Shown piece by piece: positions 2,932-38,458 of a DNA stretch of 38,458 bases. This DNA is from a virus. Within the stretch, counting starts at the first letter, position 1. Each line of letters begins with the position of its first letter. The stretch covers positions 1-38,458 of the IMG/VR virus record IMGVR_UViG_3300039071_000077; one strand, 5' to 3'. Position numbers and translations under genes: made by a program. Under the pieces are notes generated by a model. It was not told the DNA's origin. It did no database searches and saw nothing but the letters and a program-made list of their open reading frames with translations.

Positions 2932-3493
2932 CTTCTTCTACGTTTTCAAATTCTATATCAATTGGAGCTGACAAATTTGAATCATCAACGCCTTGATTTT
3001 CTGATAATTTCAAGTACTTAAATAACTCTTTCGGAATAGCGAACTTAATTTCCACGTTTTCAAGTTTTTCAGGATTGAAGTCAGCCAAGTCAACTTCATC
3101 TAATCCACCAAACTTAGACATTAGCTCCAATGCTTTAGCCTGTGCTTTTAAGTCTTTGGCTTGAATAGCACGTTGATAGTATTTGTGTGCATATTCGTAA
3201 AGAATCGCCTGCTTTCCTTTCTTGTCGGATTCCATTACGTTTCCGTACAAAATTTGCGCATTCTTCACATCCAAATACGCTTGCGCTAATGAAACTCCAT
3301 GATCTTCCATTAACTTATTCACGATTTGTTGTGGCGAATAATAGTTGAAAGAAAGCGTGAGCACTTCTGACCAACGCTTTCTTATTTCCTCCAATTTTGG
3401 AGATAAAGGGAACCGCACTGGGTCGATATGATGCGCCATTATCTTTTCCAGTGTGGTATCGCCTTTCTGTATTTTAAACGGAAGTTTATTCAT
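2909..3493 (-). CDS. Putative terminase small subunit (assigned by position)
   Basis: 194 aa, helical, with an acidic C-terminus (VEEDEEQGED). Lies immediately upstream of and overlapping terL. No motif recognised. Confidence 0.45.
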   Translation of the reverse strand: MNKLPFKIQKGDTTLEKIMAHHIDPVRFPLSPKLEEIRKRWSEVLTLSFNYYSPQQIVNKLMEDHGVSLAQAYLDVKNAQILYGNVMESDKKGKQAILYEYAHKYYQRAIQAKDLKAQAKALELMSKFGGLDEVDLADFNPEKLENVEIKFAIPKELFKYLKLSENQGVDDSNLSAPIDIEFENVEEDEEQGED

Positions 3494-4769
3494 TCAAATA
3501 AAGTTCTAATTGTTCATTGGACAACTTTTGTCCATTTTTTACGATTTCATATTGCAGATGATTATCGCGCATGTACTTAATGTAACGCTTGATGTGAACA
3601 TCGGCATAGTTTTCTCCTAATTCAATGATGCGTGCTTGTCTCCATGTTTTCTCGCAAGAAATCAAAGTAGTTCCAGAACCACCAAATGGATCGCCAACAA
3701 TATCACGTTGCTTACTGCTGTTTTTTATAAGATAACAAAACAACTCTATAGGCTTCATTGTTGGGTGGTCTTCGTTTCGCAATGGTTTGTCAAACTCTAA
3801 AATAGTAGTTTGCTTTCTGTCGGAATACCAATTGTGCGCTGCTCCTTCTTTCCATCCATATAAACAAGGCTCGTGTTTCCAATGATAATCTTGTCTTGAT
3901 AACACCATTGAATTCTTCTGCCAAATCAAACATTGTGAAAGTTTATAACCTGCATCGGCTAATGCCTTTCTAAAGTTGGCACCTTCACTATCTGCGTGAA
4001 AAACATAAATTGGCGCACCTGGTAATGCTTTCAAAAATGTTTCTTGGTAGAACAAATACAAAAACGTGTAAAAATCTCCTGTAGACATGTTGTCGTTTTC
4101 GATTTTCAAGCGGTCTTTTGTTCCACCTTCATAGTTTACGTTGTATGGTGGATCAGTAAGAACCAAGTTAAATTCTTCTGGTCCTAATTTCTTATAAGGT
4201 TCGTTTTTGGTGCTATCGCCACAAACAATCACGTGCTTGATTCCTTTTTGTACCGATTTCAATTCGTAAACATCACCAATTTGCGTGATTGATTCTTTTG
4301 GTGGTGTTGGGTCAAACTCTTGTTCTTCTTCATTGTCACCTTCTTCTCCTAAAGCTTCTCCTGGTATTTCAATATCTTCTAAAAATAATCCTAGTGATTC
4401 CAAATCCACATCACCAAAATGTGCTTCTAAAACATCAACATCCCAAAACCCAACTGGAACGTTTGATGTAATGTTGTATTCCTTGAATTCCGATTCGGTT
4501 AAGCATCGGCTTGGAATACGCACATCGATTTCTTCTTCTCCTCTGCCGATGTCCATCATTACTTTTACTCTTTGATGTCCGGCAATAATAACGTTATCGG
4601 TGTTTACTGCAGGAATTTCGGCAAGGTTAAACTTCTCGATACTTTTAATCAGAAGTGCTTTTTTCTCTTCTGTTAGTTTTCTAGGATTGTACTCATAAGG
4701 AACTAAGTCTTTGACTTTCCTTTTTTCGGTTCTCCATTCTAGTGGAGCGGTTAAAATATTAGTTTCCAT
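3486..4769 (-). CDS. ParB-like nuclease domain fused to an N6A/N4C DNA methyltransferase (beta-class motif order)
   Basis: N-terminus has YNPRK...IIAGHQR (ParB/Srx-like). Motif IV is LTDPPYNVNY; motif I DPFGGSGTT lies near the C-terminus. The ATG at 4769 (the track start at 4772 is TTG) overlaps the upstream ORF by 11 nt. Confidence 0.85.
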   Translation of the reverse strand: METNILTAPLEWRTEKRKVKDLVPYEYNPRKLTEEKKALLIKSIEKFNLAEIPAVNTDNVIIAGHQRVKVMMDIGRGEEEIDVRIPSRCLTESEFKEYNITSNVPVGFWDVDVLEAHFGDVDLESLGLFLEDIEIPGEALGEEGDNEEEQEFDPTPPKESITQIGDVYELKSVQKGIKHVIVCGDSTKNEPYKKLGPEEFNLVLTDPPYNVNYEGGTKDRLKIENDNMSTGDFYTFLYLFYQETFLKALPGAPIYVFHADSEGANFRKALADAGYKLSQCLIWQKNSMVLSRQDYHWKHEPCLYGWKEGAAHNWYSDRKQTTILEFDKPLRNEDHPTMKPIELFCYLIKNSSKQRDIVGDPFGGSGTTLISCEKTWRQARIIELGENYADVHIKRYIKYMRDNHLQYEIVKNGQKLSNEQLELYLNE

Positions 4770-5529
4770 CAATTAGGCGTTTTATGGTTAATAATTCCTC
4801 ATTTTTAGCAATGAGTGTGCTTTCTTGTTTTGATATGCTTCGCTCCAGTTTCTTTACTTCAGCTACTCCGTTTGCGGTTTTTAGGAGTTCTTTATTTTGA
4901 AGTAATCGCTTTTTCATTTTGCTGATACTAGCAAAAAGATGTTGTTCTTTTTTTAGCATATTAGCCGGAGACAAACTTTCGAATTCGGTTTTAGCTTCTT
5001 TTGGAGCTACTTTGTGTGTTTTCCAATAGTCTAGCTTTTCCCAACACAATGCGTTTTGCTTTTGCTTTTTAGCAATATCAATTTGAATCGATAATGCTTT
5101 GTATTCGGCTTCTGCTGGAAATTCGTTTAGTTGCACTTTTAAGAAGCACATTTCTTTAAATAGCGTATTGGCTTCTAAAAGTATAGGTCGAAGTTCTGCA
5201 GGTAATTCGTGAAAGTAAAGTGCTTGTTTGGTAACGTAGTTGGTTTGTTGTTGTTCAATATATTGCACAACGGAAACATCATTTGATTGCTTTTGACTGC
5301 TTTTGACTGGTTTTGACTGGTTTTGACTGGTTTTGACCGCTTTTGATTGGTTTTGAACTGACTTGTCAATTTTTGACAACTCATACTTTAATTTTTCGAG
5401 CAGTTGAGCAGTTTGTTTGCGCTGGAAGTTTTTTAGTAAATTTTTATTATGAGCTGGTAAACTCGCATACAACAAAACTCCTTCATCATAAGGAGTTCCT
5501 TTTGCTTTCCATTGTTCTATTGCGTTCAT
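4759..5529 (-). CDS. Hypothetical protein, 256 aa, with decapeptide repeats (QNQSKPVKTS-like) and a coiled-coil-like C-terminal half
   Basis: ATG at 5529 lies 29 nt after motif site 5559-5569. Contains the 10-nt DNA tandem repeat at 5281-5360. Confidence 0.75.
   Translation of the reverse strand: MNAIEQWKAKGTPYDEGVLLYASLPAHNKNLLKNFQRKQTAQLLEKLKYELSKIDKSVQNQSKAVKTSQNQSKPVKSSQKQSNDVSVVQYIEQQQTNYVTKQALYFHELPAELRPILLEANTLFKEMCFLKVQLNEFPAEAEYKALSIQIDIAKKQKQNALCWEKLDYWKTHKVAPKEAKTEFESLSPANMLKKEQHLFASISKMKKRLLQNKELLKTANGVAEVKKLERSISKQESTLIAKNEELLTIKRLIDGN
5281..5360. repeat. Tandem repeat, eight 10-nt units (plus-strand consensus TTTTGACTGG) inside CDS 4759-5529
   Basis: Read directly. There are three perfect units at 5301-5330 with degenerate flanking units, and weaker units extend to 5380. 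Confidence 0.9.
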
Positions 5530-6041: not shown

Positions 6042-6413
6042 CTAATTAGTCAAAACTTTATTTTGAAGTGCAATTGAATTCATACACCAACCGGTACAAA
6101 GTTCGTAATTGAATTTTTCTGGCACATTTTCTTCTATTTGTTTTTTGCTTCTTGGAATCGCAGTTGCAATGGTGTAGGTTTCTCTTTTGTATTGAAGCTT
6201 CAACATAATTTCGTTTAGTTCGTAATCAGAAATACAACCTTCTGGAAAGGTTTGAAACAAAAACTCCATCAACTGATCAGTTGAAAAACGAGTGTTGGCT
6301 TGTTCCGCATTTTCAGCAGGAACAAAGTTTTGCTTAATGAATTCTGATATTTGAGAAACGTAATCGTACATACTGTGTTTATATCGTTGCAGGAGCTCTC
6401 CAGCAGAAAACAT
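6042..6413 (-). CDS. Hypothetical protein, 123 aa
   Basis: ATG at 6413. Followed 12 nt after the stop by a hairpin plus T-run (5963-6029). Confidence 0.7.
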   Translation of the reverse strand: MFSAGELLQRYKHSMYDYVSQISEFIKQNFVPAENAEQANTRFSTDQLMEFLFQTFPEGCISDYELNEIMLKLQYKRETYTIATAIPRSKKQIEENVPEKFNYELCTGWCMNSIALQNKVLTN

Positions 6414-8690: not shown

Positions 8691-9701
8691 TTAAGGAGTT
8701 ACTGCCAAAGTTTCTGATTCGTAGTACAATGCATTTTGAGTAGCATTTTCTAATCCTCTTTCAGAGCCATCAAAAACAGCCACGTAAAGCAATTGGTTGA
8801 TTAAGAAATCATAACCAAGGAAGAACTCCATGAACACTTTTAACTTGTAATCAAGCGTTTGTGTTTCTGTAACTGCTGGTTTGTCTTGAACATCAATCAA
8901 ACGAACCATATTTCCATCAACTGTTGTGAACATGATATCGTCTGGAATATTTGGTAAACCAACAATTTCCATTTTAGTTAATGGAGTTTTCATGTTTCCA
9001 TCAGCAGTATAGTTCACGTTTGTACCATATGCTTGTTCGTACTCATCAGCAAATGTTAATGCCATTGAATCACTCATAAACAAGTATTTACACTTTCTAC
9101 GAGTTTTCTTTGGTAATTGCTTTTCAAATGATTTTACTTCATCTAAAATATTAGATGGAGTAATTGCATTCAAAGGAATACGGAACGCTGGATGTGTTGT
9201 GTCTGCCAAAGCATTTTCCACTTGTGTAGCAATTCCATCTAATGATTTTCCAAACTCACCATCAGCGTTAGCATCATCACGAACACCAGTTTGTGATAAA
9301 TCTTCTAAATCATCGGCAACCTTTAATAAAAGGTCATCCATGATATATTTAGAAATTGGATGTTCTGCTGCAGTTTTACCTGTAGTATATAAATCCGCTA
9401 ACCATGAATTCAAAATTTCAGAAGGAATTACAGCGAAGTTTACTTTGTGGTGGAACGCTTTAAGCATCTTGTGCTTAAATTGCGCTTCTCCAAGTTCTTG
9501 CCATTCTGCTTTGAAACCTTGAACTACACGAGTTAAGATTGAATGGAATTGTGGAAATTTACCTTTAACCGCAGTTAAGGTTTTGCAGTACTTGTTTAAA
9601 GTAACTTCTGCAGCATAAACACCAGCAGAGATTACCTCTGTGTTGTTTTTTACGTATTCGTTCACTTCTTTTTGAACGTCTTGGACATTGATTGTAGCCA
9701 T
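8691..9701 (-). CDS. Major capsid protein (putative)
   Basis: 336 aa, starting 2 nt after the protease-scaffold gene. Size and position are typical of an HK97-fold capsid. Resemblance to the P2 gpN-like family is from memory only. Confidence 0.65.
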   Translation of the reverse strand: MATINVQDVQKEVNEYVKNNTEVISAGVYAAEVTLNKYCKTLTAVKGKFPQFHSILTRVVQGFKAEWQELGEAQFKHKMLKAFHHKVNFAVIPSEILNSWLADLYTTGKTAAEHPISKYIMDDLLLKVADDLEDLSQTGVRDDANADGEFGKSLDGIATQVENALADTTHPAFRIPLNAITPSNILDEVKSFEKQLPKKTRRKCKYLFMSDSMALTFADEYEQAYGTNVNYTADGNMKTPLTKMEIVGLPNIPDDIMFTTVDGNMVRLIDVQDKPAVTETQTLDYKLKVFMEFFLGYDFLINQLLYVAVFDGSERGLENATQNALYYESETLAVTP

Positions 9702-9703
9702 TT

Positions 9704-11053
9704 TTATTTACCAATTAATGAGTTAGCCATTTGATTGTGAGAAGCTGATTCGTCAACGAAATCATTTTTTACTCCTTCTGAAGCTCCAATCTTAGGAGCG
9801 GTTGTTGATGCACCGTCTTGTTTACCTACTTCAATGCTTTTTGCATTAATAGCAGTTAATTTTTCGGTTAAAGTTCCTGCAACTGGTAAACCTAAGTTTT
9901 CCATAATTGCATCTACAGAAGTTTCCATTGCAGTGGCATTGGTTTGTGCTTCTGTTAATTGTCCGGTTACTGCATCAATAGCAGTTTGATGATTTGCGTT
10001 TGCATCATCCAATTGTGTTTGAATAGTGGAATTTTCAGTTTCCAATGTTTCCAAACGACCATTAATAGCTTCTAACTGCTCTTCGTTTAAAAAGCTCCCA
10101 TTGTCGGTAAGAGCCAACGGAGCATCTAAACCTAAAACAGCTTCCACTTTTGGTAGCGATTTAGTGTTCATATTAGTATTTGATTTAGAATTATTCGATT
10201 TTTTAGCGTTTGACAATTCGAAAACTTTGTCAATAGCATCTTGCATGGTTCCAAAAGCATCAATCAATCCTTCTTGGATTGCTTCTTGTGGAGAGAAAAC
10301 ATCACCTTTCAATGCTCTTTCTGAAATGTTTGGTAAGAATCGTTTCATATCTGCATGAAACTTTTCTGCTAAAGGATTTAATGAATTTTCAATTAAATAT
10401 CTCTCATCACCTTCTTGAAGCTTTCTAGTTGCAATGTTTTTCTCTGGAGATAAATCAGAGTAAATTTCATAAACCTTTCCACCTTGCTTTTCAATAATGC
10501 CTTTAAGATTTACGCCTTGTGTCATTACTCCAATAGAACCAACAACATCCGCAAATTCATTAAGTATTTTGAATTGAGAAGCTGCATACATATAATAAGC
10601 AGCAGAACCAACAATATCATTTGAATAAGAAACAAGTGGTTTATCGTAATTGAAAATGTAATTTGCTATTTCAGGTGTTCCAGAAACTTGTCCACCACCT
10701 GAATTATAATCCATTACAACACCAATAACAGTTTCATCATTACGCCAACCTTCTAAAATAGACATTATGCTTTGTGTCCCTCTTGGTCCACACATTTGGT
10801 CATATTTAAAAATAGGATGATGTACTTGAATGATTCCAACCTTCTCTTCTTTTGAAGCAGAAGCACTTGGTTGGTTCGGATTGAAAGGATCAAATACCAT
10901 TTTAGCATCTGATAAATAAAATCCAGTAGTATTTAAAGTCTCTTTAATTTCCTGACCGCTAATGATATTCATTAAAAACGGAAGTAGGTCGTTTCCTGTA
11001 TCACCAGAAAACATCCATTTGGAACTTAAAAGACTGTACGTGTTCTTTTTCAC
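9704..11053 (-). CDS. Prohead protease (S49/SppA-ClpP fold) fused to a coiled-coil scaffold-like C-terminus
   Basis: Signatures DYNSGGGQVSG and IVGSAAYYMYAAS. The C-terminal ~170 aa are Ala/Glu/Gln/Thr-rich. The start codon is GTG at 11053; the first in-frame ATG is codon 14. Confidence 0.75.
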   Translation of the reverse strand: MKKNTYSLLSSKWMFSGDTGNDLLPFLMNIISGQEIKETLNTTGFYLSDAKMVFDPFNPNQPSASASKEEKVGIIQVHHPIFKYDQMCGPRGTQSIMSILEGWRNDETVIGVVMDYNSGGGQVSGTPEIANYIFNYDKPLVSYSNDIVGSAAYYMYAASQFKILNEFADVVGSIGVMTQGVNLKGIIEKQGGKVYEIYSDLSPEKNIATRKLQEGDERYLIENSLNPLAEKFHADMKRFLPNISERALKGDVFSPQEAIQEGLIDAFGTMQDAIDKVFELSNAKKSNNSKSNTNMNTKSLPKVEAVLGLDAPLALTDNGSFLNEEQLEAINGRLETLETENSTIQTQLDDANANHQTAIDAVTGQLTEAQTNATAMETSVDAIMENLGLPVAGTLTEKLTAINAKSIEVGKQDGASTTAPKIGASEGVKNDFVDESASHNQMANSLIGK

Positions 11054-11670: not shown

Positions 11671-12132
11671 CTATAAGTTTACTTTATTTTTCTTTTTGTG
11701 CTTAATATTTTCACCGCAATAACGCTGGTAATTTCGGTACATAGAATCCTGATTTAGTTCGTTTTCTGAAATGTCATAAATACTAAAAAACAAACGAATT
11801 GCCTTTTTTGCAGTCAAATCTCCTTTTACCAGCTCGTTATCCACAAATGAGTAGAAGTCTTCAAAGAACAAACGTTCCAGGCATACAGACAAAAACTTCA
11901 ATTTGTTGTTATCAATTGAGTAACCTTTGGCGTTAAAATAGAATTCCGGAACCTCAATATCGTAGAAGCTTCCTTTTCCTGCTTCTTTTTCTGGCTTTTC
12001 AACTTTCTTTTCCAGTAGTTGGAGCAGAAACAAACCAATAAATGTCTTTTTGCTCACCTGATGCACAGCTCCGTAACGCTTGATCAGGTATTTTTTTACA
12101 TGGCACTTAACAGGAATTTGGATAACTATCAT
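11671..12132 (-). CDS. Hypothetical protein, 153 aa; first gene after the non-coding iteron region (a regulator is possible)
   Basis: ATG at 12132. Basic termini. No domain recognised. Confidence 0.65.
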   Translation of the reverse strand: MIVIQIPVKCHVKKYLIKRYGAVHQVSKKTFIGLFLLQLLEKKVEKPEKEAGKGSFYDIEVPEFYFNAKGYSIDNNKLKFLSVCLERLFFEDFYSFVDNELVKGDLTAKKAIRLFFSIYDISENELNQDSMYRNYQRYCGENIKHKKKNKVNL

Positions 12133-12233
12133 ATTTTCAAAGGTTTAATAGTAAAAATACAATTTTTAAGCATAAGTACAAACAAAAAAGTTTGTAAAAT
12201 TTACAAATATGTTAGCGTTTTTTCAAAAAAAGA

Positions 12234-12478
12234 GTTCCACAATTCCACATCATTGAAAATCAATGTTTTAGAGTTCCACAAGTAGTAGGAACTTGTGGGA
12301 ACATGGTGTTTTTTGTTGGAACTCAAAAAAATAGTTCCACAAATCCCACAAAAATCCCACAGAATTTTACAAAAGTTCCACAGTACTTATTTAGACTTAA
12401 TATATTGATTATTAAATATATAGTATAGATTATATCTATAGTAAAAGTATGTTTGTGGGAAAATGGAACTTTTGGAAC
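12234..12478. repeat. Iteron-like array of (G/A)T(T/C)CCACA units in direct and inverted orientation around an AT-rich dyad (candidate origin or regulator-binding hub)
   Basis: Direct units at 12234, 12242, 12273, 12334, 12343, 12354 and 12375. Inverted units at 12294, 12315, 12454, 12464 and 12473. Dyad TATAGAT-TAT-ATCTATA at 12424-12440. Confidence 0.7.
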
Positions 12479-12663
12479 TGAAAATTTCTATATTTTTTGA
12501 AAAAAAAATTTTTGGAAAAAATTTTTAATTTTTGGGGGTGCGGGGGAGTTTGAGTGGAGTTGTGTGTGTGGTATGTTGGTTGTGTTGCGAATTACTGCTT
12601 TTCGTTTGATTTGCGCCCTTGTATTTTAAATTTGATAGTTCCATTTGTCCATCGTGTTAGAAT

Positions 12664-12688
12664 AAAAAAAACCGCCTTGTGTGGCGGT
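12664..12688 (-). terminator. Intrinsic terminator at the end of the early operon (ACCGCC/GGCGGU stem plus U8)
   Basis: Plus strand reads aaaaaaaaccgccttgtgtggcggt. On the minus strand the hairpin is followed by a T8 run. Confidence 0.8.
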
Positions 12689-12711
12689 TTGTGTTGGTTG
12701 TGGGTTTTGGT

Positions 12712-16677: not shown

Positions 16678-19600
16678 CTAATAAGGTAAATCATCTTCTT
16701 TTTCTTCGGGAGCAGGATTAAAAGCATCCACTTTCTCACGTATCAAATTCAGTACTCCTGCGTGCTCCATCATGTCGTAATCAAAAATATAAGCCGATGT
16801 TGCAGTGTCGTTGAATCGGTGACTTCTTACGGCTCCAATGAAGTATTTTTTTGATTTGAAGTAATTACGAAGTGTGTTTTCTCCAATAACATCTACTCCT
16901 TCACGTGTAGAAACTTCTTTGTGATACAATTGATGCACCGCATTCAAGCGCAAATACAAAACTCGTTTTCGGCTGTCGTTGGTCCACTCGATTTCCTTTT
17001 CTCCTTTTCTGCCTTGAAGCTTCAAACTTGCTGGCTTGTCGATAATGAAATGGGTATCTTTCACTAAAAGCGGATAAGGTTGTCTGTCCAATAAATACTC
17101 CAACGTTTTCCAGAACTCTGCCAATCCTTCTGATTCGATAATTAAGTCCGAAGAATCGATTACTGCATTTTTAGCCAATTGATACATTTCTTCATATTCA
17201 AACGGAAACTTAAAGTGTTCCCAAAGGATTGAAATTGGCGTAAGCATCACCACATAATTCTGTAACATACGTTCCTGGTAATCGTGTCCTTTTAAATCCT
17301 TTTTTAGTTTGTTGATTAAATCAGCGTACATTTTTATGTATTGCGTTTCAACTTCTTTTCGGTGCTGAACAATGTCTAATACTAGCGATGTCAATCCTTC
17401 TTCTTCCCAAGACTTTAATAAGTTGTAATCGTTGATTTCTTGTTGCGTGAAATTCTCTTGTGGCTTAATAAAGTGTTGAATTACCGAGCGTGAAGTGATT
17501 GCGTTATCATCCCAAGTTGATAAATACTGCGAAAGCATTACTAAGAAACAATTCACTTTTGCTACTTTGGTTCGGTTGTCTCCAGTTGCCATTCCAAGTT
17601 CACGCCCACGATTATCGTATGATCCTTTTATCGATTGTAAAATCTTCATATCGATGTTATCGTGAAACTCTTCCAAAATGGTTAAGGCGTTTCGGGTTCT
17701 TCCGATTCTTCGTGAAAATGCTACCAAAGTAGAACCGTTCAAATCGAATGCTGGTTGCTTATAAGTAAAAAGCGAAGCCAATGATTCGGCATACTTTGAT
17801 TTACCGGAACCTTTCTCACCTGATAAAAACAAAAGCGGTGATACTGCGTGCGTTTTTACAAATAAATCTCTGAATAATGAGAAGAAAACCGAAGCGATTC
17901 CAATGATTGCTTTGTCTTTGTAAACCAATTCCATTTGCTTCATCCAAGTATTCATTGTAATTGGTGCTTGCTTGTACACAAAATATCTGTCATTTTCGTA
18001 AGGATCATCATCATCACGTGTGTGCTTGTAGATTTCAGAAAATGCAGGAGAATAATAGTGTTTCACTTCTTCAAAATATTCTGATTTGTCAGCTGCTTCG
18101 GTTTCTACTTGCACGATTCCGTATTCGTTTACGTTTTTTATGATGTTATTGAAAAATATACAGTTTGCAAAAGCAAAGAAACCTTCACGTTGCCACCCTA
18201 ATGTTTTCAATTCGAAAGCCATGATGAATTGCGAAAGAATTTTGTTTCGCATTAGCGTAAAATGTGCTGCATTGAAATTTTCCGTTTTCACGAAATAACC
18301 TTCATTAATCAAAGCTTCATCAAATTTATTAGCCGAAACGAAATCCGAAGAATCGAAATCAATTAGTTTCTTTGAGCCGTTTTCGTTTACTACTTCACAT
18401 AAACGTTTGTTGTCATTCTTTCCGTAAACGTGGAAAAGTGGCGTGATTCTGTAATTTGTTCCTTTGAAAAAACTTCCGCTTCTACCTTGAAACCAACACG
18501 AGTTTCCAATGGTGCAAAATCTGTATTTTTTAAATTCTTCAAAATCCGCTCCTGGTGGCAAACCTAAATCAATCGCAGTTGCTTCATCTGGATTTCCTTT
18601 TTCGATTTTCTCGATTGCTTTTGATGCGAAATCGTTAATTCTCGCTTTCAAAGAAGTCAATTGCGTTTTTAAAATCTTGTTACAATCCTTAACGTAAGTG
18701 TTGTGTTTGATGTCATCTTGAATTCTATACAACATTTCAGCCACCGCAGTAACTGCTTCCGAAAGTTTATCAGGGTCATTTGCTGCTTGATTTTTCAAAA
18801 ACGTAGTTTTCCAAAGAACTGCATCTTGTGCGTTATCGAAAATGAATTGTTTGATGTCCTCGTGTTTTCTAGAATACGAATCAGGGTCTTCTCCTTCAGG
18901 AAATATAACCACCGAAACTTTGAAACCATTAGCCAATAATTTGTTGATGTCTTCCAGTGCGGCTTTAGTTCCTGCTTTTGGATTTCCTTGTGCATCAAAG
19001 CCGTCATTATCTCGGCAAATGATAACGTGAGCTGCAAAACGGTTTAGTAGTTTGCATTGGTCATCTGACAAAGCCGTTCCACCCGAAGCCACAGCCATGT
19101 CACATCCGTATTGGTGCAAAGCGGTTACATCGGTATAACCTTCACATAAAACCGCAGTTTTAGTTCTGGTAATGCTTTTTTTGGCTTGGTAAATTCCGTA
19201 AAGAGAGCGAGATTTTGAGTAAACAATTGATTCTTTCGAGTTGATGTACTTTCTTCCGTTTTCTTTTGCTGGGTCATCATCAGAGCATCGGCCACCAAAA
19301 CCAATCACGTTTCCGTTTACATCTTCAATTGGGAAGATTAATCGGTTCTTGAAGAAGTCAAACGAGTTTCCGTCTTTCACGTTTACTAATCCTGCGGTTT
19401 TTCCTGCTTCAAATTTGGCAGTTTCAATAATTGGATTCGTTAAGAATTTCCAATCATCAGGAGCAAAACCAATTCCGAAAGTCAAAAGCGTTTCTTCGTT
19501 TATTTGTCGGTCCGCAATCATTTTTTTAGTCCAATGATCAGCTGGTAAATTTTGGAAAGCTTTTTGGTATTTTTTAGAAGCCCAATCCATTAAACGAAAC

Positions 19601-19938
19601 AACTCTTCTTTTTCAGAGCGTTTTTGTTTTACTTCTTCGGTTTCTTCTTCGCGTTCCAATGCTATGCCACAAATGTCAGCAATCTTCTGAACGGCTTCAT
19701 AAAACGAGCAGTTCTCGTATTCCATTACGAACTTAATTCCGTCACCTTTCTTTTGCGTGCTGTAACAAACGAAGTTGTTTTTAGCAGGCGAAACTTTAAA
19801 ACTTGGTGTTTTATCGTTCGGATTGAAAGGTGATTTACATTCGTAAAGAGAACCAGCACGTTTTAATTCGGCATATTTTGAAATAATGCTGATGATGTCA
19901 GCTTCTCTAACTTGGTCTATTGAGGATGGTTTGTACAT
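16678..19938 (-). CDS. Bifunctional DNA primase (DnaG-like Zn-ribbon remnant plus TOPRIM) / P-loop helicase (SF3/D5-like)
   Basis: 1086 aa. CKSPFNPNDKTPSF...VCYST resembles a degenerate CHC2 finger. TOPRIM motifs are VLCEGYTDV and IICRDNDGFD. Walker A is SGEKGSGKSK and Walker B-like is LTILEEF. Confidence 0.85.
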   Translation of the reverse strand: MYKPSSIDQVREADIISIISKYAELKRAGSLYECKSPFNPNDKTPSFKVSPAKNNFVCYSTQKKGDGIKFVMEYENCSFYEAVQKIADICGIALEREEETEEVKQKRSEKEELFRLMDWASKKYQKAFQNLPADHWTKKMIADRQINEETLLTFGIGFAPDDWKFLTNPIIETAKFEAGKTAGLVNVKDGNSFDFFKNRLIFPIEDVNGNVIGFGGRCSDDDPAKENGRKYINSKESIVYSKSRSLYGIYQAKKSITRTKTAVLCEGYTDVTALHQYGCDMAVASGGTALSDDQCKLLNRFAAHVIICRDNDGFDAQGNPKAGTKAALEDINKLLANGFKVSVVIFPEGEDPDSYSRKHEDIKQFIFDNAQDAVLWKTTFLKNQAANDPDKLSEAVTAVAEMLYRIQDDIKHNTYVKDCNKILKTQLTSLKARINDFASKAIEKIEKGNPDEATAIDLGLPPGADFEEFKKYRFCTIGNSCWFQGRSGSFFKGTNYRITPLFHVYGKNDNKRLCEVVNENGSKKLIDFDSSDFVSANKFDEALINEGYFVKTENFNAAHFTLMRNKILSQFIMAFELKTLGWQREGFFAFANCIFFNNIIKNVNEYGIVQVETEAADKSEYFEEVKHYYSPAFSEIYKHTRDDDDPYENDRYFVYKQAPITMNTWMKQMELVYKDKAIIGIASVFFSLFRDLFVKTHAVSPLLFLSGEKGSGKSKYAESLASLFTYKQPAFDLNGSTLVAFSRRIGRTRNALTILEEFHDNIDMKILQSIKGSYDNRGRELGMATGDNRTKVAKVNCFLVMLSQYLSTWDDNAITSRSVIQHFIKPQENFTQQEINDYNLLKSWEEEGLTSLVLDIVQHRKEVETQYIKMYADLINKLKKDLKGHDYQERMLQNYVVMLTPISILWEHFKFPFEYEEMYQLAKNAVIDSSDLIIESEGLAEFWKTLEYLLDRQPYPLLVKDTHFIIDKPASLKLQGRKGEKEIEWTNDSRKRVLYLRLNAVHQLYHKEVSTREGVDVIGENTLRNYFKSKKYFIGAVRSHRFNDTATSAYIFDYDMMEHAGVLNLIREKVDAFNPAPEEKEDDLPY

Positions 19939-19949
19939 GTTTAATTTTA

Positions 19950-20237
19950 TTAAATTGAAATACGTATTCCGTTTTCTTTACTATAAAAAACTTCAACATT
20001 TTTACTTCTTAATTTCCCTGATTTTGTTCTTAAGTTTTCAATCCAAATGATATTATTTCTTTCTGTTTGAAAACCTTCACAAGAAATTACAACATGACTT
20101 AAGTAACCTTTTGAACCATTAAAATCAACACTAAATTTATTACCTGTAACTCTATATCCATGTGAACAAATAACACTCACTAATGATAAGTTATTTAATA
20201 GTGGAAGCTTAAAATTTATAATTAGAATTTCTGTCAT
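19950..20237 (-). CDS. Hypothetical protein, 95 aa, AT-rich
   Basis: ATG at 20237. Confidence 0.6.
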   Translation of the reverse strand: MTEILIINFKLPLLNNLSLVSVICSHGYRVTGNKFSVDFNGSKGYLSHVVISCEGFQTERNNIIWIENLRTKSGKLRSKNVEVFYSKENGIRISI

Positions 20238-20764: not shown

Positions 20765-21346
20765 TTATTGAATGATTTTATTCGTAATTGCTTTTGTGAT
20801 TAATCCTGATTTTGAATACACGTTAAATTTTTCAAAAAGGTGTTTTTTGTGTGTGTTCAAAGTAGATTCAGTAATTTCAAGTTCATCAGCAATTTGCTTA
20901 TCAGGTTTGTCAGAAGCTAAAAGCGTAACGATTTCAAGTTCACGTGGAGTTAGTTTGTTTCCGTCGATTGAAATATTTTTCGATTGCCATTTTAAGCATT
21001 GGCAATTATTAGAGCAGATAAAGTTGTCGGCTTGTTTTAGATTTCCGTTGCAATCAAAATCAGGTTCATGATCTGCTGCACCGTAAACACAAAAAGCAAA
21101 TCTTTCAATTGCTTCAGATTGTGAAAGGTTTTTTAAATCTTCTATCGCAGCTTCATCTGAAAGTAATTTTTCAAAAATTAATGCTCTTTTGGTTGGGTTT
21201 AATTCTTCAAACTTAATGGTTTGACCATTTGAAAGGGCAAAAACTTGCTTAGTTTCTCTACATCCAAAAAGTTCTGTGGATGTATCACCAATCATCAGTC
21301 CAGCTGGTATTTGGTGAATTAGTGAATTTGTTGTAAATTTGTCCAT
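20765..21346 (-). CDS. LuxR/GerE-type HTH transcriptional regulator with a Cys-rich N-terminal domain
   Basis: C-terminal TPRELEIVTLLASDKPDKQIADELEITESTLNTHKKHLFEKFNV matches the GerE HTH pattern. The N-terminal 130 aa are of unknown type and contain DCNGN...FICSNNCQCLKW. Confidence 0.75.
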   Translation of the reverse strand: MDKFTTNSLIHQIPAGLMIGDTSTELFGCRETKQVFALSNGQTIKFEELNPTKRALIFEKLLSDEAAIEDLKNLSQSEAIERFAFCVYGAADHEPDFDCNGNLKQADNFICSNNCQCLKWQSKNISIDGNKLTPRELEIVTLLASDKPDKQIADELEITESTLNTHKKHLFEKFNVYSKSGLITKAITNKIIQ

Positions 21347-22406: not shown

Positions 22407-23612
22407 ATGCTGATACTTCAAAATAATCAATTAAACTATCCAATAAACTACTCACAAAAAATGAATGGGAAGTTAACTTACAAAGTAAAGATTAAAGAGG
22501 ACTACATCAGACATGATGGAACCAGCGCTATTTATGTTCAAGTGTTTTTGAATAATAAGAAAAAAATATTTCCAATGAATTTATCGGTTCCTTTAAAAAT
22601 GTTTGATAAATCGAAACAACGTGTTTCTTCAAAATTTGAACATCATAAAGACTACAACTTAATTATTGAAAAGTTTTTGGCTGATATTAATACCATTGAA
22701 ATTAACTACAGACTTTCTAATGTGGTTTTGGATATTGAAAAACTTACTACTGAAATATTAAATCCGAGTTCTTGGATTTGCTTTGTTAAGTTTTGGGGCG
22801 AAGAACTGGAGCGACAAAAAGAGACTTTAAAAAAAGGAACATATCGCCAACAAAAATCGGCTTTAGAAAAATTGAAAGAATATAAGGAAACGCTTTACTT
22901 CTACGAAATCAATAAACAAGAAGTTGATAATATTACTCGATTCCTAAAAGTGAAAAAGAAAAACGGAGAAAACACTATTGGAACGTTTTTCAAGAACTTT
23001 AAAAAATATTTGAATATTGCTACCGAAAGAGGAATAAAAGTGTCACTGCATAGCGGAGAAATAAAAAGAACCAACTTTAAATCGCACCGCACATTCTTGA
23101 TGCCTGATGAAATTAATACTTTGTTCGAATATTGGAATAGTAAATTCATTAATGATCTACACAAAAGCGTTTTGTCTCGTTTTCTTTTTTCTTGCTTTAC
23201 TGGATTGCGAATTTCCGATATTCAAGAATTAAATACGGAAAACATCATTGGCGATTACTTGGTTTTTGTGTCTCAAAAAACAGGTAAACTACAGAGGATT
23301 CAATTAAATAAATCAGCACAGCAATTCATTGGAAATAAAGTTTTGTTTGAAGGAAAGCATTCTGATGAACACATAAATAGAACTTTGAAAGATATCTGCA
23401 AAGTTGCTGGAATAAAAAAACATGTGTCGTACCATGTAGCACGACACACGTTTGCAACTAATTTTCTTATTTCGGGTGGAAATGTAACGGTGCTTCAAAA
23501 ATTACTTGGCCACTCTAAAATTGAAGATACTATGATTTATGTTCACATTGCCGAATCGGTTACTGATGTGCAAATTTTAAACATGGATAGTATCTTAATA
23601 ATTAACACTTAA
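22407..23612 (+). CDS. int: Tyrosine recombinase / phage integrase
   Basis: Catalytic signatures HVARHTFAT and LLGHSKIEDTMIYVH. The N-terminal KLTYKVKIKEDYIRHDGTSAIYVQV is arm-binding-like. An alternative ATG at 22461 (MNGKLTYKV) may be the true start. Confidence 0.9.
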   Translation: MLILQNNQLNYPINYSQKMNGKLTYKVKIKEDYIRHDGTSAIYVQVFLNNKKKIFPMNLSVPLKMFDKSKQRVSSKFEHHKDYNLIIEKFLADINTIEINYRLSNVVLDIEKLTTEILNPSSWICFVKFWGEELERQKETLKKGTYRQQKSALEKLKEYKETLYFYEINKQEVDNITRFLKVKKKNGENTIGTFFKNFKKYLNIATERGIKVSLHSGEIKRTNFKSHRTFLMPDEINTLFEYWNSKFINDLHKSVLSRFLFSCFTGLRISDIQELNTENIIGDYLVFVSQKTGKLQRIQLNKSAQQFIGNKVLFEGKHSDEHINRTLKDICKVAGIKKHVSYHVARHTFATNFLISGGNVTVLQKLLGHSKIEDTMIYVHIAESVTDVQILNMDSILIINT

Positions 23613-30438: not shown

Positions 30439-30816
30439 TTAACAAAACTTTAAAACAAGAAAATTACCAGGATCAATATGGAGATTATTGTGTTGTTCAA
30501 AATTAGTTTTCAAATTGAGGTTTTCATTATCTATAAACCGCCAACTATAAAACTGATTTTTTGTGTTTTTCTGAATGTTTAAATCAGCAGGAGTATTTTT
30601 CAAACTATAGTTCCACAATTCCACAGGCCTGTGAATACTACAATTATCAAAAAGAATTTGTGGAACTTCTACATAAACTTCCAACGTAGCAACAAAATTA
30701 AAAGCATCTGCTTTTACAATTTCTGTTTTTACTCCATCATCAGGAGCGTGTGCTTGTACTGGCAAGGCACTTAACGTAAACAACGCTAAAATTAAGCCGA
30801 AAACAAATTTTTTCAT
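30439..30816 (-). CDS. Secreted hypothetical protein, 125 aa (moron)
   Basis: Signal peptide MKKFVFGLILALFTLSALPVQA. Own upstream motif site (30873-30883) and its own UUCG-loop terminator (30409-30430). Confidence 0.7.
   Translation of the reverse strand: MKKFVFGLILALFTLSALPVQAHAPDDGVKTEIVKADAFNFVATLEVYVEVPQILFDNCSIHRPVELWNYSLKNTPADLNIQKNTKNQFYSWRFIDNENLNLKTNFEQHNNLHIDPGNFLVLKFC
30609..30666. repeat. Satellite copies of the iteron unit inside the moron CDS
   Basis: The 17-mer AGTTCCACAATTCCACA (30609-30625) is identical to 12233-12249. There is also a palindrome CACAGGCCTGTG (30622-30633) and an inverted TGTGGAAC (30659-30666). Confidence 0.6.
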
Positions 30817-37846: not shown

Positions 37847-38458
37847 GCTGTTGTGGATTGTGAGCCTGTTGGATTTTTATCTAAGGTTGTCAAAATAGTA
37901 TTTTCAAAAGCGGCACGAATGGTAGTGTCCCAACCGTTGTATTGCGCAATGAAATCGTAAACTTCGAGAGTGGTTTCTCTGTTTGTTTTGAAAAGTGCTG
38001 ATAAGATTGTGAAAGCTTCACGCTTATCAGAACCCGAACCTGCTCCGAGCTTTCCTCCTGGTATGCCTGCACCAATCAAGGAAGGGTCTACACCAAGAGC
38101 GAAAAGCACTTCGGAGTTAGCGGCTTCTGCTTCCGGAAGATACGAGCCGTCTTTTAATTTGTCATCTATTGCAGTGATGGTAACCGCAGATATTTCTTTT
38201 CCTTCAACTAAAAACTTCATTGATTGGATTGCTTTTCCTGCGTTATCATTTCCTGATAAAGAATCGTTAATCGTATCGATTACTTTGTTTCGAATAGCTT
38301 TTCTTTCATCTGGAGTGAACTTAATCCAGTTTTCCATGTATATCTTTTCAAAGTACATTTCGTTGATTTCAACTAAGTACTTAACAGTCATTTGATTATT
38401 GAAAAGCGCTTTTTTCAAAGCAGGAACCGAGTTTGCAACATCTAACCAACCGCTTTCC
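37843..38458 (-). CDS. Portal protein, C-terminal part (continues from 1-853 across the circular junction; 38352-38458 duplicates 1-107)
   Basis: Stop at 37843. The frame is open to the window end and in phase with the left-end segment. Confidence 0.7.
   Translation of the reverse strand, partial: ESGWLDVANSVPALKKALFNNQMTVKYLVEINEMYFEKIYMENWIKFTPDERKAIRNKVIDTINDSLSGNDNAGKAIQSMKFLVEGKEISAVTITAIDDKLKDGSYLPEAEAANSEVLFALGVDPSLIGAGIPGGKLGAGSGSDKREAFTILSALFKTNRETTLEVYDFIAQYNGWDTTIRAAFENTILTTLDKNPTGSQSTTA
38352..38458. repeat. Right copy of the 107-nt terminal overlap (identical to 1-107)
   Basis: Same string as bases 1-107. Confidence 0.95.

Follow-up and report, generated by a model that had tools for sequence, protein, structure and literature searches.

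The question raised by this locus is what function is served by a long non-coding region between the early and the late genes of a temperate phage, in which a short repeat recurs in both orientations around AT-rich DNA. The DNA analysed (the window) is the 38.5-kb genome of a Flavobacterium temperate phage, and its minus strand is referred to as the gene strand. The original prediction had offered two readings of the region, namely a replication origin recognised by a phage initiator such as the primase-helicase, or an activator array for the first late gene. According to comparisons with related phages and a structure model of the candidate initiator, the array is probably the replication origin of the phage, and its iterons would be bound by the phage primase-helicase. 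This first reading is favoured by an architecture conserved between lineages and by a repeat sequence which changes in concert in all its copies.

Composition of the array region

Positions 12133-12711 had been named the largest non-coding region, which holds for the window, since a seeming gap at the window ends is explained by a gene crossing the 105-bp assembly overlap. The window was assembled as a circle and its ends fall within a portal-like gene. The motif TYCCACA has 20 matches in the window compared to 9.1 ± 2.5 in dinucleotide shuffles, and a count of 20 was reached in 0 of 100 shuffles. Nine of the 20 matches are clustered within 226 bp (12235-12460), a length for which the background rate predicts ~0.05. 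When half-sites are included, 12 copies of a 6-8 bp unit are found in both orientations, spanning 12234-12478. Copies on the plus strand start at 12234, 12242, 12273, 12334, 12343, 12354 and 12375, and copies on the opposite strand lie at 12294-12302 (TGTGGGAAC), 12315-12322 (GTTGGAAC), 12454-12460, 12464-12469 and 12473-12478. A repeat dyad, GTTCCACAAGT-N7-ACTTGTGGGAAC, is formed at 12273-12302.

All coordinates given for the array in the original prediction agree with the sequence, and the dyad TATAGAT-TAT-ATCTATA (12424-12440) and the A/T tracts (12480-12533) it had pointed out are both present. The G-rich tract is present as well, from 12534 onwards, but relatives conserve only a 13-nt box, GGGGGTGCGGGGG (12534-12546). 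The following features were delineated, listed in the direction of transcription except for the last:

16678-19938, minus strand: primase-helicase, 1086 aa, the proposed initiator
12669-12690, minus strand: intrinsic terminator with an 8-pair stem and a T-run, kept in close relatives, which closes the early (replication) operon
12534-12546, minus strand: C-box, CCCCCGCACCCCC on the gene strand, corresponding to GGGGGTGCGGGGG on the plus strand
12480-12533, no strand: alternating A- and T-tracts, read from the sequence, which adjoin the C-box in relatives too
12454-12478, plus strand: left iteron set, TGTGGGA (12454-12460), TGGAAC (12464-12469) and TGGAAC (12473-12478)
12384-12453, no strand: AT-rich spacer, putative DNA unwinding element, containing the dyad at 12424-12440 and a WATCAANNNNTTR match at 12397-12409 (minus strand)
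12334-12382, minus strand: middle iteron set of four direct copies (TGTGGAAC, TGTGGGAT, TGTGGGAT, TGTGGAAC) with spacings of 21, 11 and 9 bp
12273-12322, no strand: inverted set, GTTGGAAC (12315-12322) and TGTGGGAAC (12294-12302) on the plus strand, and also GTTCCACA (12273-12280)
12257-12269, plus strand: second WATCAANNNNTTR match (AATCAATGTTTTA), in the spacer ahead of the terminal pair
12234-12249, minus strand: terminal iteron pair, TGTGGAAT TGTGGAAC, with an 8-bp period, followed by a T-run
12152-12182, minus strand: candidate late promoter of the Bacteroidetes type, TTTG (12182-12179), N19 and TATTTTTA (12159-12152)
11671-12132, minus strand: first gene after the array, 153 aa, which heads the head-morphogenesis/late block
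30611-30665, no strand: second mini-array of three copies, within an ORF for a 125-aa secreted protein

The least stable 60 bp of the 38.5-kb genome (12386-12445, z = 4.2) and the least stable 40 bp (12400-12439, z = 4.1) both fall into the AT-rich centre. This centre is flanked by opposed sets of three copies (12454-12478) and four copies (12334-12382), of which the left set faces outward from the spacer and has the opposite orientation to the middle one. Beyond the left set, the A/T tracts form an imperfect 25-nt inverted repeat (12481-12505 and 12509-12533) and likely represent intrinsically bent or easily opened DNA. In transcriptional order, the terminator at 12669-12690 immediately precedes the array.

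The candidate late promoter was called using the published Bacteroidetes consensus TTTG / TAnnTTTG. It is situated ~20 nt before the ATG at 12132 and is not convincingly conserved in relatives. Transcription of the head and tail genes most likely starts from a late promoter in the final 100 nt of this intergenic region. A generic sigma-70 promoter scan was uninformative, as the phage is from Bacteroidota, and GC skew held no information on the origin because the single coding strand dominates the skew. An Rfam scan of 11.9-13.4 kb gave chance-level matches only, all far below the gathering scores, and no tRNA genes were found in the window.

The mini-array at 30.6 kb consists of one inverted copy, ~35 nt containing ttgataat, and then TGTGGAATTGTGGAAC; 17 nt of this doublet are identical to part of the terminal pair in the main array. 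The only relative carrying the 125-aa gene has the mini-array, too. That locus is 98% identical overall and, therefore, uninformative about selection.

Conservation of the layout and change of the repeat

Conservation of the array in related genomes had been suggested as a check, and the same layout is indeed kept in more than 35 related phages and prophages. Its order is C-box, A/T tracts, two to three inverted copies, an AT-rich spacer of ~80 bp, three to four direct copies, the inverted set and the terminal pair. More than 25 non-redundant relatives share the block order and spacing '< 8-9 < 76-101 > 9-11 > 9-11 > 17-20 < 19-22 < 31-53 > 8 >'. The left set comprises 2-3 copies at 8-9 bp spacing in all relatives, and the length of the spacer between the iteron sets is conserved (76-101 bp). 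An inverted set occurs at the place corresponding to the one in the window, where GTTCCACA (12273-12280) contributes to the dyad 12273-12302. The terminal pair is spaced at 8-9 bp in nearly all arrays and is found ~100 nt before the ATG in most.

Elements other than iterons are conserved likewise. Of 25 non-redundant arrays, 20 have a C5-N3-C5 box with an A/T run behind it, located at a constant distance of ~390-430 nt before the ATG; the box occurs once in the whole window and is conserved independently of the repeat sequence. Matches to the IHF-type consensus WATCAANNNNTTR are found at two fixed places. At the spacer position (12397-12409 in the window) the consensus is enriched ~10-fold, and the second match recurs ~135-140 nt before the ATG in many relatives.

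Each lineage uses one repeat, a 6-8-mer common to all its copies, which differs between lineages. Among these repeats are TGTGGAAC, TGTGGGAC, CGGGAAC, TATGGAAC, GTAGGAAC, GTGGTAC, GTTAGAAC, GTTGAAC, GTAGTT, GGTCAAC, CAACAG and TGGAAG. Repeats which change in concert in this way are the hallmark of a binding protein encoded by the phage itself. A DNA pattern search for TATGGAAC arrays yielded 120 mostly random matches and no new array of this phage family, and a literature search on the repeat motif or on origins of Flavobacterium phages returned nothing relevant.

The position of the array relative to genes differs between near and distant relatives. In the clade of the window, the array is located directly before the 153-aa gene in 35 of 35 loci; in the window itself it lies 4.0 kb and ~13 ORFs downstream of the primase-helicase gene and abuts the first late gene. 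In distant relatives, whose primase-helicases are 26-30% identical, the four-block array starts 6-110 nt past the stop codon of the primase-helicase gene (L042, L043, L053, L055, the L059 group and L079). In L053, ~2.8 kb of other genes separate the array from the 153-aa homologue.

The primase-helicase as candidate initiator

Residues 1-420 of the 1086-aa protein are a DnaG-type primase according to Pfam, NCBIfam and PDB sequence matches. The helicase part has a Walker A motif at residue 707 and is without sequence match to DUF927, Primase_Cterm, D5_N or any Pfam, NCBIfam or PDB family. Residues 440-1086 were modelled using AF2 with moderate confidence (pLDDT 69), the ATPase core being of low confidence (pLDDT < 50 for residues 263-389). 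In a Foldseek search with this model, the only significant PDB matches were 5dgk (SCCmec Cch, E = 8e-7) and 8tch (SaPIbov1 Rep, E = 2e-4), both with a probability of 1.0 and with full-length alignments of 650-690 columns; forkhead winged-helix domains gave weak matches only. A C-terminal winged helix is predicted at ~998-1053 (helix, helix, beta-hairpin; pLDDT 80-90).

Helices H2 and H3 of this winged helix are invariant in every lineage with the iteron core GGAAC, and the wing-tip residue 1041 (R1041 in the window) varies with the 5' flank of the repeat. R or H is paired with a TGT flank (~15 loci), Q with (C/G)G (L029, L038, L101 and L102, the last a Flavobacterium columnare prophage), N with TAT (L014) and W with GTA/TGA (L098, picked by its protein sequence with the array read afterwards); independent occurrences are few (one each for N and W, perhaps two for Q), and the pairs were counted ignoring kinship. 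The sole close lineage with an altered core, GGGAC, has an altered H2. TGTGGAAC is retained in L034 and L036 despite a rather diverged C-terminal domain. Divergence in sliding windows along the primase-helicase revealed no variant-specific region, and the covariation signal is visible only at single wing residues, after the winged helix had been located. The case for the primase-helicase as initiator is strengthened by the predicted Rep/Cch-like fold, by the C-terminal winged helix with its wing-tip covariation, and by the array abutting the 3' end of the gene in distant relatives.

Further proteins were considered as binder and rejected. The recognition helix of an early LuxR/GerE-type HTH protein is unchanged between TGTGGAAC phages and CGGGAAC phages, the latter of which retain only the HTH domain of this protein. 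The 153-aa protein was considered as binder or small terminase. It has no Pfam, PHROG or NCBIfam match, its confident AF2 model is without a PDB fold match, and none of its alignment columns tracks the repeat classes. For the small early genes, presence or absence compared to the repeat class gave no consistent candidate. A DnaA_C-like 150-aa gene (weak Pfam match, E = 0.014) is confined to CGGGAAC phages, L101 and L102 left out. No match to the Rep_3, RepA or lambda O families was found among the early proteins.

In the proposed mechanism, the winged helix of the 1086-aa protein would bind the 8-bp iterons (TGTGGAAC and its variants). Two helicase rings would assemble face to face on the opposed iteron sets which flank the AT-rich spacer of ~70 bp (12384-12453). 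Melting of the spacer by these rings would then start bidirectional replication, with priming by the fused primase. Bending of the DNA into the initiation complex is probably brought about by the A/T tracts together with the two IHF-like sites. We infer that the array itself has origin activity.

Iteron origins at which a self-loading helicase reads the repeats are established biology in SaPIs and P4, and the origin proposed here is most likely of this kind, a known design in an unstudied phage family. The iterons of SaPI origins are short (5-8 bp) and 6-12 in number, and at least two of them are placed on each side of an AT-rich centre in opposite directions; the origin is located directly 3' of the gene for the helicase, which is itself the initiator and reads the iterons by its C-terminal winged helix (PMC9371898, PMC7581432). 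The iterons vary by element, with matching initiator specificity (PMC9371898, PMC7581432). Similar to SaPIbov1, SaPI1, SaPI5 and SCCmec Cch/Cch2, twelve units of 6-8 bp are found here, within the range of 6-12, with opposed sets of three and four copies flanking the AT-rich DNA at 12384-12453 and a candidate initiator helicase of predicted Rep/Cch fold (residues 440-1086). In contrast to SaPIs, the array is ~4 kb away from the gene in the clade of the window and gene-adjacent only in distant relatives, the host belongs to Bacteroidota, and instead of a satellite we deal with a complete temperate siphophage. The primases of SaPIbov1 and SaPI5 belong to the AEP family (PMC7581432), whereas the primase here is of DnaG type and fused to the helicase. 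Furthermore, the helicase lacks the sequence-family match to DUF927 or Primase_Cterm/D5_N by which it would resemble SaPI helicases. The second half of the array (inverted set, IHF-like site and terminal pair), the C-box, the A/T tracts and the mini-array are without a counterpart described for SaPIs.

In the P4 alpha protein, a DnaG-type primase, a helicase and a C-terminal winged-helix domain are combined in one polypeptide (PMC2777425). The 1086-aa protein has the same three-domain order, its winged helix being predicted, but differs from alpha in having no SF3 signature (D5_N/Primase_Cterm, Pfam) and in its fold matches, which are Cch and SaPIbov1 Rep. P4 has octamer repeats (TGTTCACC) oriented both ways and depends on a further cis site, crr, several kb away. 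By analogy, the mini-array at 30611-30665 could parallel crr.

At the origins of SV40 large T and papillomavirus E1, opposed short elements flank the melting DNA with an A/T tract nearby, and the initiator helicase forms two hexamers. These origins have been used as an analogy for self-loading initiator helicases (PMC7581432). They differ from the present case in an origin-binding domain N-terminal to the helicase and belong to eukaryotic viruses, with no homology shown. The origins of plasmids with RepA, pi or TrfA and of lambda (O protein) likewise have initiator repeats beside an AT-rich unwinding element, often with involvement of IHF. However, their iterons are 17-22 bp long, mostly direct and helically phased, compared to 8 bp in both orientations here, and the initiator is a separate WH1-WH2 or O protein which recruits the host DnaB.

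Alternative functions and implications

One reading adds a second task to the origin. The primase-helicase would fire the origin and, in addition, occupy the mini-array and the promoter-proximal half of the main array (inverted set, IHF-like site and terminal pair, ~70-110 nt upstream of the likely late start), whereby transcription of the late head and tail genes would be allowed only after replication initiation complexes are in place. The C-box could then mark the start of priming or the limit of unwinding. We regard such a dual switch as rather unlikely; if true, it would be a case of replication-coupled late-gene control in a temperate Bacteroidota phage without an obvious late activator.

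A purely regulatory role was judged unlikely. It would have a phage activator or repressor bind the array and, together with bending, switch on the promoter of the 153-aa gene and, hence, of a late operon comprising this gene and ~27 kb of head, packaging and tail genes. Since the early operon is terminated at 12669-12690 and the genes from 12132 round to 23595 are all on one strand, the late promoter must be in the gap. The array abuts the first late gene in 35 of 35 loci of the clade, so a role in late transcription is equally well placed. The terminal pair keeps its distance of ~100 nt to the ATG in most of these loci, the promoter-proximal sub-module is copied at 30611-30665 upstream of tail genes, and a candidate regulator exists in the early LuxR/GerE-type HTH protein, which is conserved in the phage family. 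However, L053, L046, L025, L042 and L043 have the complete four-block array after the primase-helicase gene, and in these five the 153-aa homologue is 2.5-4 kb away or unrelated genes follow the array. The recognition helix of the LuxR-type protein is essentially identical across differing repeats (ITESTLNTHKKHLFEKF vs ITESTLNTHKKNLFEKF), and no other regulator family common to all phages was found. Twelve opposed sites around the most unstable DNA of the genome are also origin-like and atypical of an activator site. The activator array considered in the original prediction is thus weakened, because relatives keep the whole four-block array ~2.8 kb away from the late-gene homologue and because the only obvious regulator keeps its recognition helix across repeats, although a second function of this type may exist beside the origin.

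Very unlikely is a packaging site, in which the C-box would be the cos cleavage site and the repeats would be bound by the small terminase, with bending at the A/T tracts and IHF-like sites. A GC-rich box of 13 nt within 34% GC overall, near likely bent DNA and repeats in two orientations at the start of the morphogenesis genes, resembles the cosN-cosB-Nu1 layout of lambda, with the repeats in the place of the cosB R-sites, and the C-box is conserved independently of the repeat sequence. Against this stand the position of the large terminase gene (1402-2931) and of a conserved 194-aa gene just upstream of it, ~9 kb away, and the 153-aa neighbour without a terminase-like fold. Moreover, the repeats are found behind the primase-helicase gene in distant relatives, their sequence covaries with the winged helix of the encoded protein, and the window is a circular assembly which ends inside the portal-like gene.

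That the repeats are host DnaA boxes, making up an oriC-like DnaA-dependent origin or a DnaA titration site, is scarcely probable. A box cluster next to AT-rich DNA is the layout of oriC, and TGTGGAAC has TGTGGA in common with the complement of the DnaA-box consensus TGTGGATAA. Yet each copy has at least two mismatches to TTATCCACA, and sister lineages with CGGGAAC, GTTAGAAC, GTTGAAC, GTAGTT and others lack CACA while the architecture is kept.

An attP, with the repeats as arm-type sites of a tyrosine integrase and the AT-rich dyad as core, can practically be dismissed: the integrase of the window has an arm-DNA-binding domain, repeats in two orientations around an AT-rich dyad with IHF-like sites look attP-like, and a tyrosine recombinase gene ends just upstream of the array in several relatives, but this small recombinase neighbours the array in some lineages only and has its own 20-bp palindrome, and the array is whole, internal and surrounded by phage genes on both sides in the integrated prophages L012 (968-kb contig), L013 (Flavobacterium urumqiense, 170 kb), L015 (167 kb) and L102 (Flavobacterium columnare chromosome, CP197485.1) and is, therefore, not attP.

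The origin reading gives a testable origin together with its initiator for a large and unstudied family of temperate phages of Flavobacterium and other Bacteroidota, some members of which are prophages in fish pathogens, Flavobacterium columnare among them. The natural repeat variants and the single wing-tip substitutions that accompany them (R/H, Q, N and W) offer a compact system for studying DNA recognition by winged helices. They bear on the evolution of origin specificity and, hence, on replicon incompatibility of co-resident prophages. A defined origin with its initiator could also be used as a replicon for genetic tools in Flavobacteria, for which few vectors exist.

Genome layout and anatomy of the array

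The window is a complete siphophage genome of 34% GC, temperate in lifestyle and assembled as a circle. Both ends share ~105 bases (1-105 recur at 38354-38458), which makes the contig a circular assembly. The join lies inside a portal-like ORF of ~450 aa (852->1 + 38353->37843, minus strand), and this ORF accounts for the seemingly non-coding stretch at the start of the window. A nucleotide search of the phage collection matched only short segments from phages of Flavobacterium and Polaribacter; relatives of the window phage are prophages in Flavobacterium species, and by sequence it is assigned to the Flavobacterium phages. Nearly all genes are on the minus strand.

Main features of the window
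22407-23612, plus strand: integrase with arm-binding domain
Plus strand: repressor-like gene
Leftward from ~21660, minus strand: early operon with LuxR/GerE-type HTH protein, coiled-coil protein, primase-helicase (1086 aa, 16678-19938), small proteins and SSB
12669-12690: intrinsic terminator closing the early operon, followed by a 579-bp gap which holds the array
From 12132 through the join to 23595: genes for head, packaging and tail; the first encode two proteins of unknown function (153 and 155 aa), an S49 protease/scaffold and a capsid-like protein
1402-2931: large terminase

A gene located between head genes and terminase (3486-4772, minus strand) codes for a ParB-like N-terminal domain fused to a DNA methyltransferase; among the relatives examined, clear homologues were found only in the homologous loci L014 (84% identity), L045 (65%) and L026 (46%). 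The coiled-coil and primase-helicase genes are separated by a 95-aa ORF (19950-20237, minus strand) that has no homologue in any retrieved locus, including a relative with a 96% identical primase-helicase, and may be an insertion or not a gene. In a close relative (P0103 contig, JGI 3300071358), an RVT_1 reverse-transcriptase gene is found among the small genes between primase-helicase and array (genes at 9081-10034).

The coordinates of the original prediction were all correct when checked against the sequence. TYCCACA occurs 20 times in the window (shuffles, 9.1 ± 2.5), with nine of these sites within 12235-12460, and the array comprises 12 copies once TGGAAC half-sites are counted.

Order of elements along the gene direction
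1-2: terminator, then CA-rich stretch
3: box CCCCCGCACCCCC (C-box)
4: alternating A- and T-tracts, ~55 nt
5: three copies in one orientation
6: very AT-rich DNA, ~70 nt, holding a 7-3-7 dyad
7: four copies in the opposite orientation to the three-copy set
8: inverted set
9: spacer, ~30 nt
10: terminal pair with 8-bp spacing
11: ~100 nt, then the ATG of the 153-aa gene

By nearest-neighbour free energy, the least stable 60-bp and 40-bp segments of the genome are 12386-12445 (z = 4.2) and 12400-12439 (z = 4.1), respectively. The CA-rich stretch between terminator and C-box (12547-12668, ~120 nt, G/T-rich on the plus strand, local GC skew +0.27) is present only in the closest relatives of the window and gave no match in an Rfam search.

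Conservation and gene linkage

About 100 loci were gathered by searching viral contigs and bacterial genomes with the 153-aa protein and, in a second search, viral contigs with a primase-helicase alignment. In 35 loci, the array lies directly upstream of the homologue of the 153-aa gene. Conservation in related genomes, which had been proposed as a check, was confirmed: the blocks keep their order and spacing to a striking degree, also where identity of the neighbouring protein drops to 25%. The repeat unit has one sequence for all copies within a phage and differs between lineages. The commonest variant is TGTGGAAC; others are TGTGGGAC, (C/G)GGGAAC, TATGGAAC, GTAGGAAC, GTGGTAC, GTTAGAAC, GTTGAAC and TGTGGAC, with GTAGTT, GGTCAAC, CGAAGTA, CAACAG and, in a high-GC phage, TGGAAG among distant relatives. 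Since all copies change in concert while the architecture is fixed, the repeat patterns point to a phage-encoded rather than a host-encoded binding protein.

Two further elements keep their place regardless of the repeat sequence. The C-box, of the form C5-N3-C5, occurs with an A/T run after it at a fixed distance in 20 of 25 arrays, and its pattern has a single occurrence in the window. The IHF-type consensus WATCAANNNNTTR is enriched about 10-fold (1.12 matches per array vs 0.10 in shuffles), with matches at two fixed places, one per spacer.

In several relatives, a small tyrosine recombinase (230-270 aa) is inserted immediately upstream of the array (L006/L029, L010, L027, L033 and L099; genes also in L013, L014, L101 and L102). 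In five relatives it is followed by the 20-bp palindrome ACATTTGTATATACAAATGT (e.g. L099, 10205-10228), which looks like a lox/dif-type resolution site beside the putative origin. A chance find in a pattern search was a minimal design in L177 (IMGVR_UViG_2681813280_000002, reverse strand ~6210-6340), just past the end of a gene: GTTCCATaaGTTCCAT, ~90 nt of AT-rich DNA and ATGGAATtATGGAAC. No match to the C-terminal winged-helix domain was detected on this contig.

Where relatives are distant, with a primase-helicase of 26-30% identity, this four-block array starts 6-110 nt past the primase-helicase stop codon. Layouts were compared using a profile of the 153-aa family. In the L059 group the array stands between helicase and 153-aa gene; in the window's clade it precedes the 153-aa gene, and other genes are interposed between helicase and array; in L053, and similarly in L046 and L025, it follows the helicase, and ~2.8 kb with seven small genes separate it from the 153-aa gene. 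According to these three layouts, the array is separable from the late gene, with all four blocks kept, and equally separable from the helicase gene. In L042 and L043 the array adjoins the helicase gene and other genes follow; the profile detected no homologue of the 153-aa family there. Gene linkage is informative; alone it does not settle whether the array belongs to an initiator or to the late gene.

Predicted structure of the primase-helicase and covariation with the repeat

For naming the binder, the predicted protein structure is more telling than gene linkage. Sequence searches with the primase-helicase recognised only the DnaG-type primase (residues 1-420). Residues 440-1086 were modelled with AlphaFold from 25 homologues (pLDDT 69; N-terminal beta-rich and C-terminal domains good, ATPase core poor). 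Exactly two kinds of significant PDB matches were obtained, both aligned over the whole length with probability 1.0: the SCCmec Cch helicase (5dgk, E = 8e-7) and the SaPIbov1 replication initiator helicase (8tch, E = 2e-4). The last 90 residues, with helices 998-1009 and 1020-1028 and a beta-hairpin 1033-1053, are predicted to be a winged helix.

Both helices of the winged helix are invariant in every lineage with the repeat core GGAAC. What distinguishes these lineages is solely the 5' flank of the core, 2-3 bases long, which tracks residue 1041 at the wing tip.

Residue 1041 and 5' flank of the GGAAC core
Arg (or His): TGT, ~15 loci
Gln, with Lys/Arg at 1046: (C/G)G, L029, L038, L101 and L102 (Flavobacterium columnare prophage)
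Asn: TAT, L014
Trp: GTA/TGA, L098

L098, L101 and L102 were chosen by protein sequence before their arrays were read, and all three fitted the pattern. The only close lineage in which the core itself differs (GGGAC) is changed in the second half of helix H2, and across lineages wholly different repeats go with wholly different helices. L034 and L036 have a diverged C-terminal domain, yet retain TGTGGAAC. The covariation of wing residue and flank, with few independent changes and no phylogenetic correction, is suggestive, not proof, of the winged helix reading the repeat.

The gap as a putative origin of lytic replication

Self-loading initiator helicases of the SaPI/Cch type bind iterons of five or six nucleotides through their C-terminal winged helix; SaPIs have 6-12 of them directly downstream of rep, with at least two oppositely pointing iterons on each side of an AT-rich centre, where two hexamers are thought to load (PMC9371898, PMC7581432). 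The P4 alpha protein combines DnaG primase, helicase and winged helix in one chain (PMC2777425), and the predicted order in the single chain of the window primase-helicase is the same. Unlike in SaPIs, the putative origin is not adjacent to the helicase gene in the window's clade, the helicase does not belong to DUF927 or Primase_Cterm at the sequence level, and the right half of the array has no counterpart. Most of the structural features tested for the SaPI type were found, and the array would work like a SaPI or P4 origin.

The gap region is probably the origin of lytic replication, with the primase-helicase as initiator; this reading draws on anatomy, conservation, linkage, predicted fold and covariation, and its steps are proposed by analogy with SaPI Rep. 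The winged helix would read the iterons, and the opposed sets flanking the unstable spacer would position two helicase rings. The spacer would melt and the fused primase would then begin synthesis, with A/T tracts and IHF-like sites shaping the initiation complex.

Binding of the repeats by the LuxR-type protein is unlikely, since its recognition helix in phages with CGGGAAC repeats is essentially the same as in the window protein. This early 193-aa protein (20765-21346, minus strand; C-terminal LuxR/GerE HTH) is conserved across the phage family, its N-terminal 130 residues matched no known family, and in the CGGGAAC phages it is cut down to the 86-aa HTH alone (L029, 8719-8979). In two of these phages (L029, 9540-9992; L038, 7659-8093), the primase-helicase is immediately preceded by an additional 150-aa gene, weakly resembling the C-terminal HTH of DnaA (E = 0.014 in Pfam, below threshold) and absent from the other loci searched, a set without L101 and L102. 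A packaging site is also unlikely: the terminase genes are ~9 kb away, and the adjoining 153-aa protein, with a confident predicted structure (pLDDT 85), has no known fold or family. An attP site was excluded, the array being whole and internal in four integrated prophages on large bacterial contigs.

The early operon terminates just upstream, so the gap must hold a late promoter as well. A weakly conserved candidate of the Bacteroidetes type is TTTG-N19-TATTTTTA (12182-12152, ~20 nt before the ATG). A three-copy mini-array at 30611-30665 (sites 30611-30625 and 30659-30665) is laid out like the promoter-proximal part of the main array, and its doublet is identical to the terminal pair over 17 nt. 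It sits among the tail genes in a 125-aa ORF (30439-30816, minus strand); this ORF has a signal peptide, a promoter region of its own and a terminator, and is by sequence a moron encoding a secreted protein. The one locus homologous to it shows 98% identity over its whole length and is hence uninformative on selection. C-box, right half of the array and mini-array fall outside the origin model, which leaves room for a second, regulatory role, e.g. late transcription coupled to origin firing, though we consider this a long shot.

The literature searched holds no description of an origin for this Flavobacterium phage family. The putative origin would be ordinary in principle, well defined and widespread in Flavobacterium prophages, and the natural specificity series of repeats and wing residues invites experiment.
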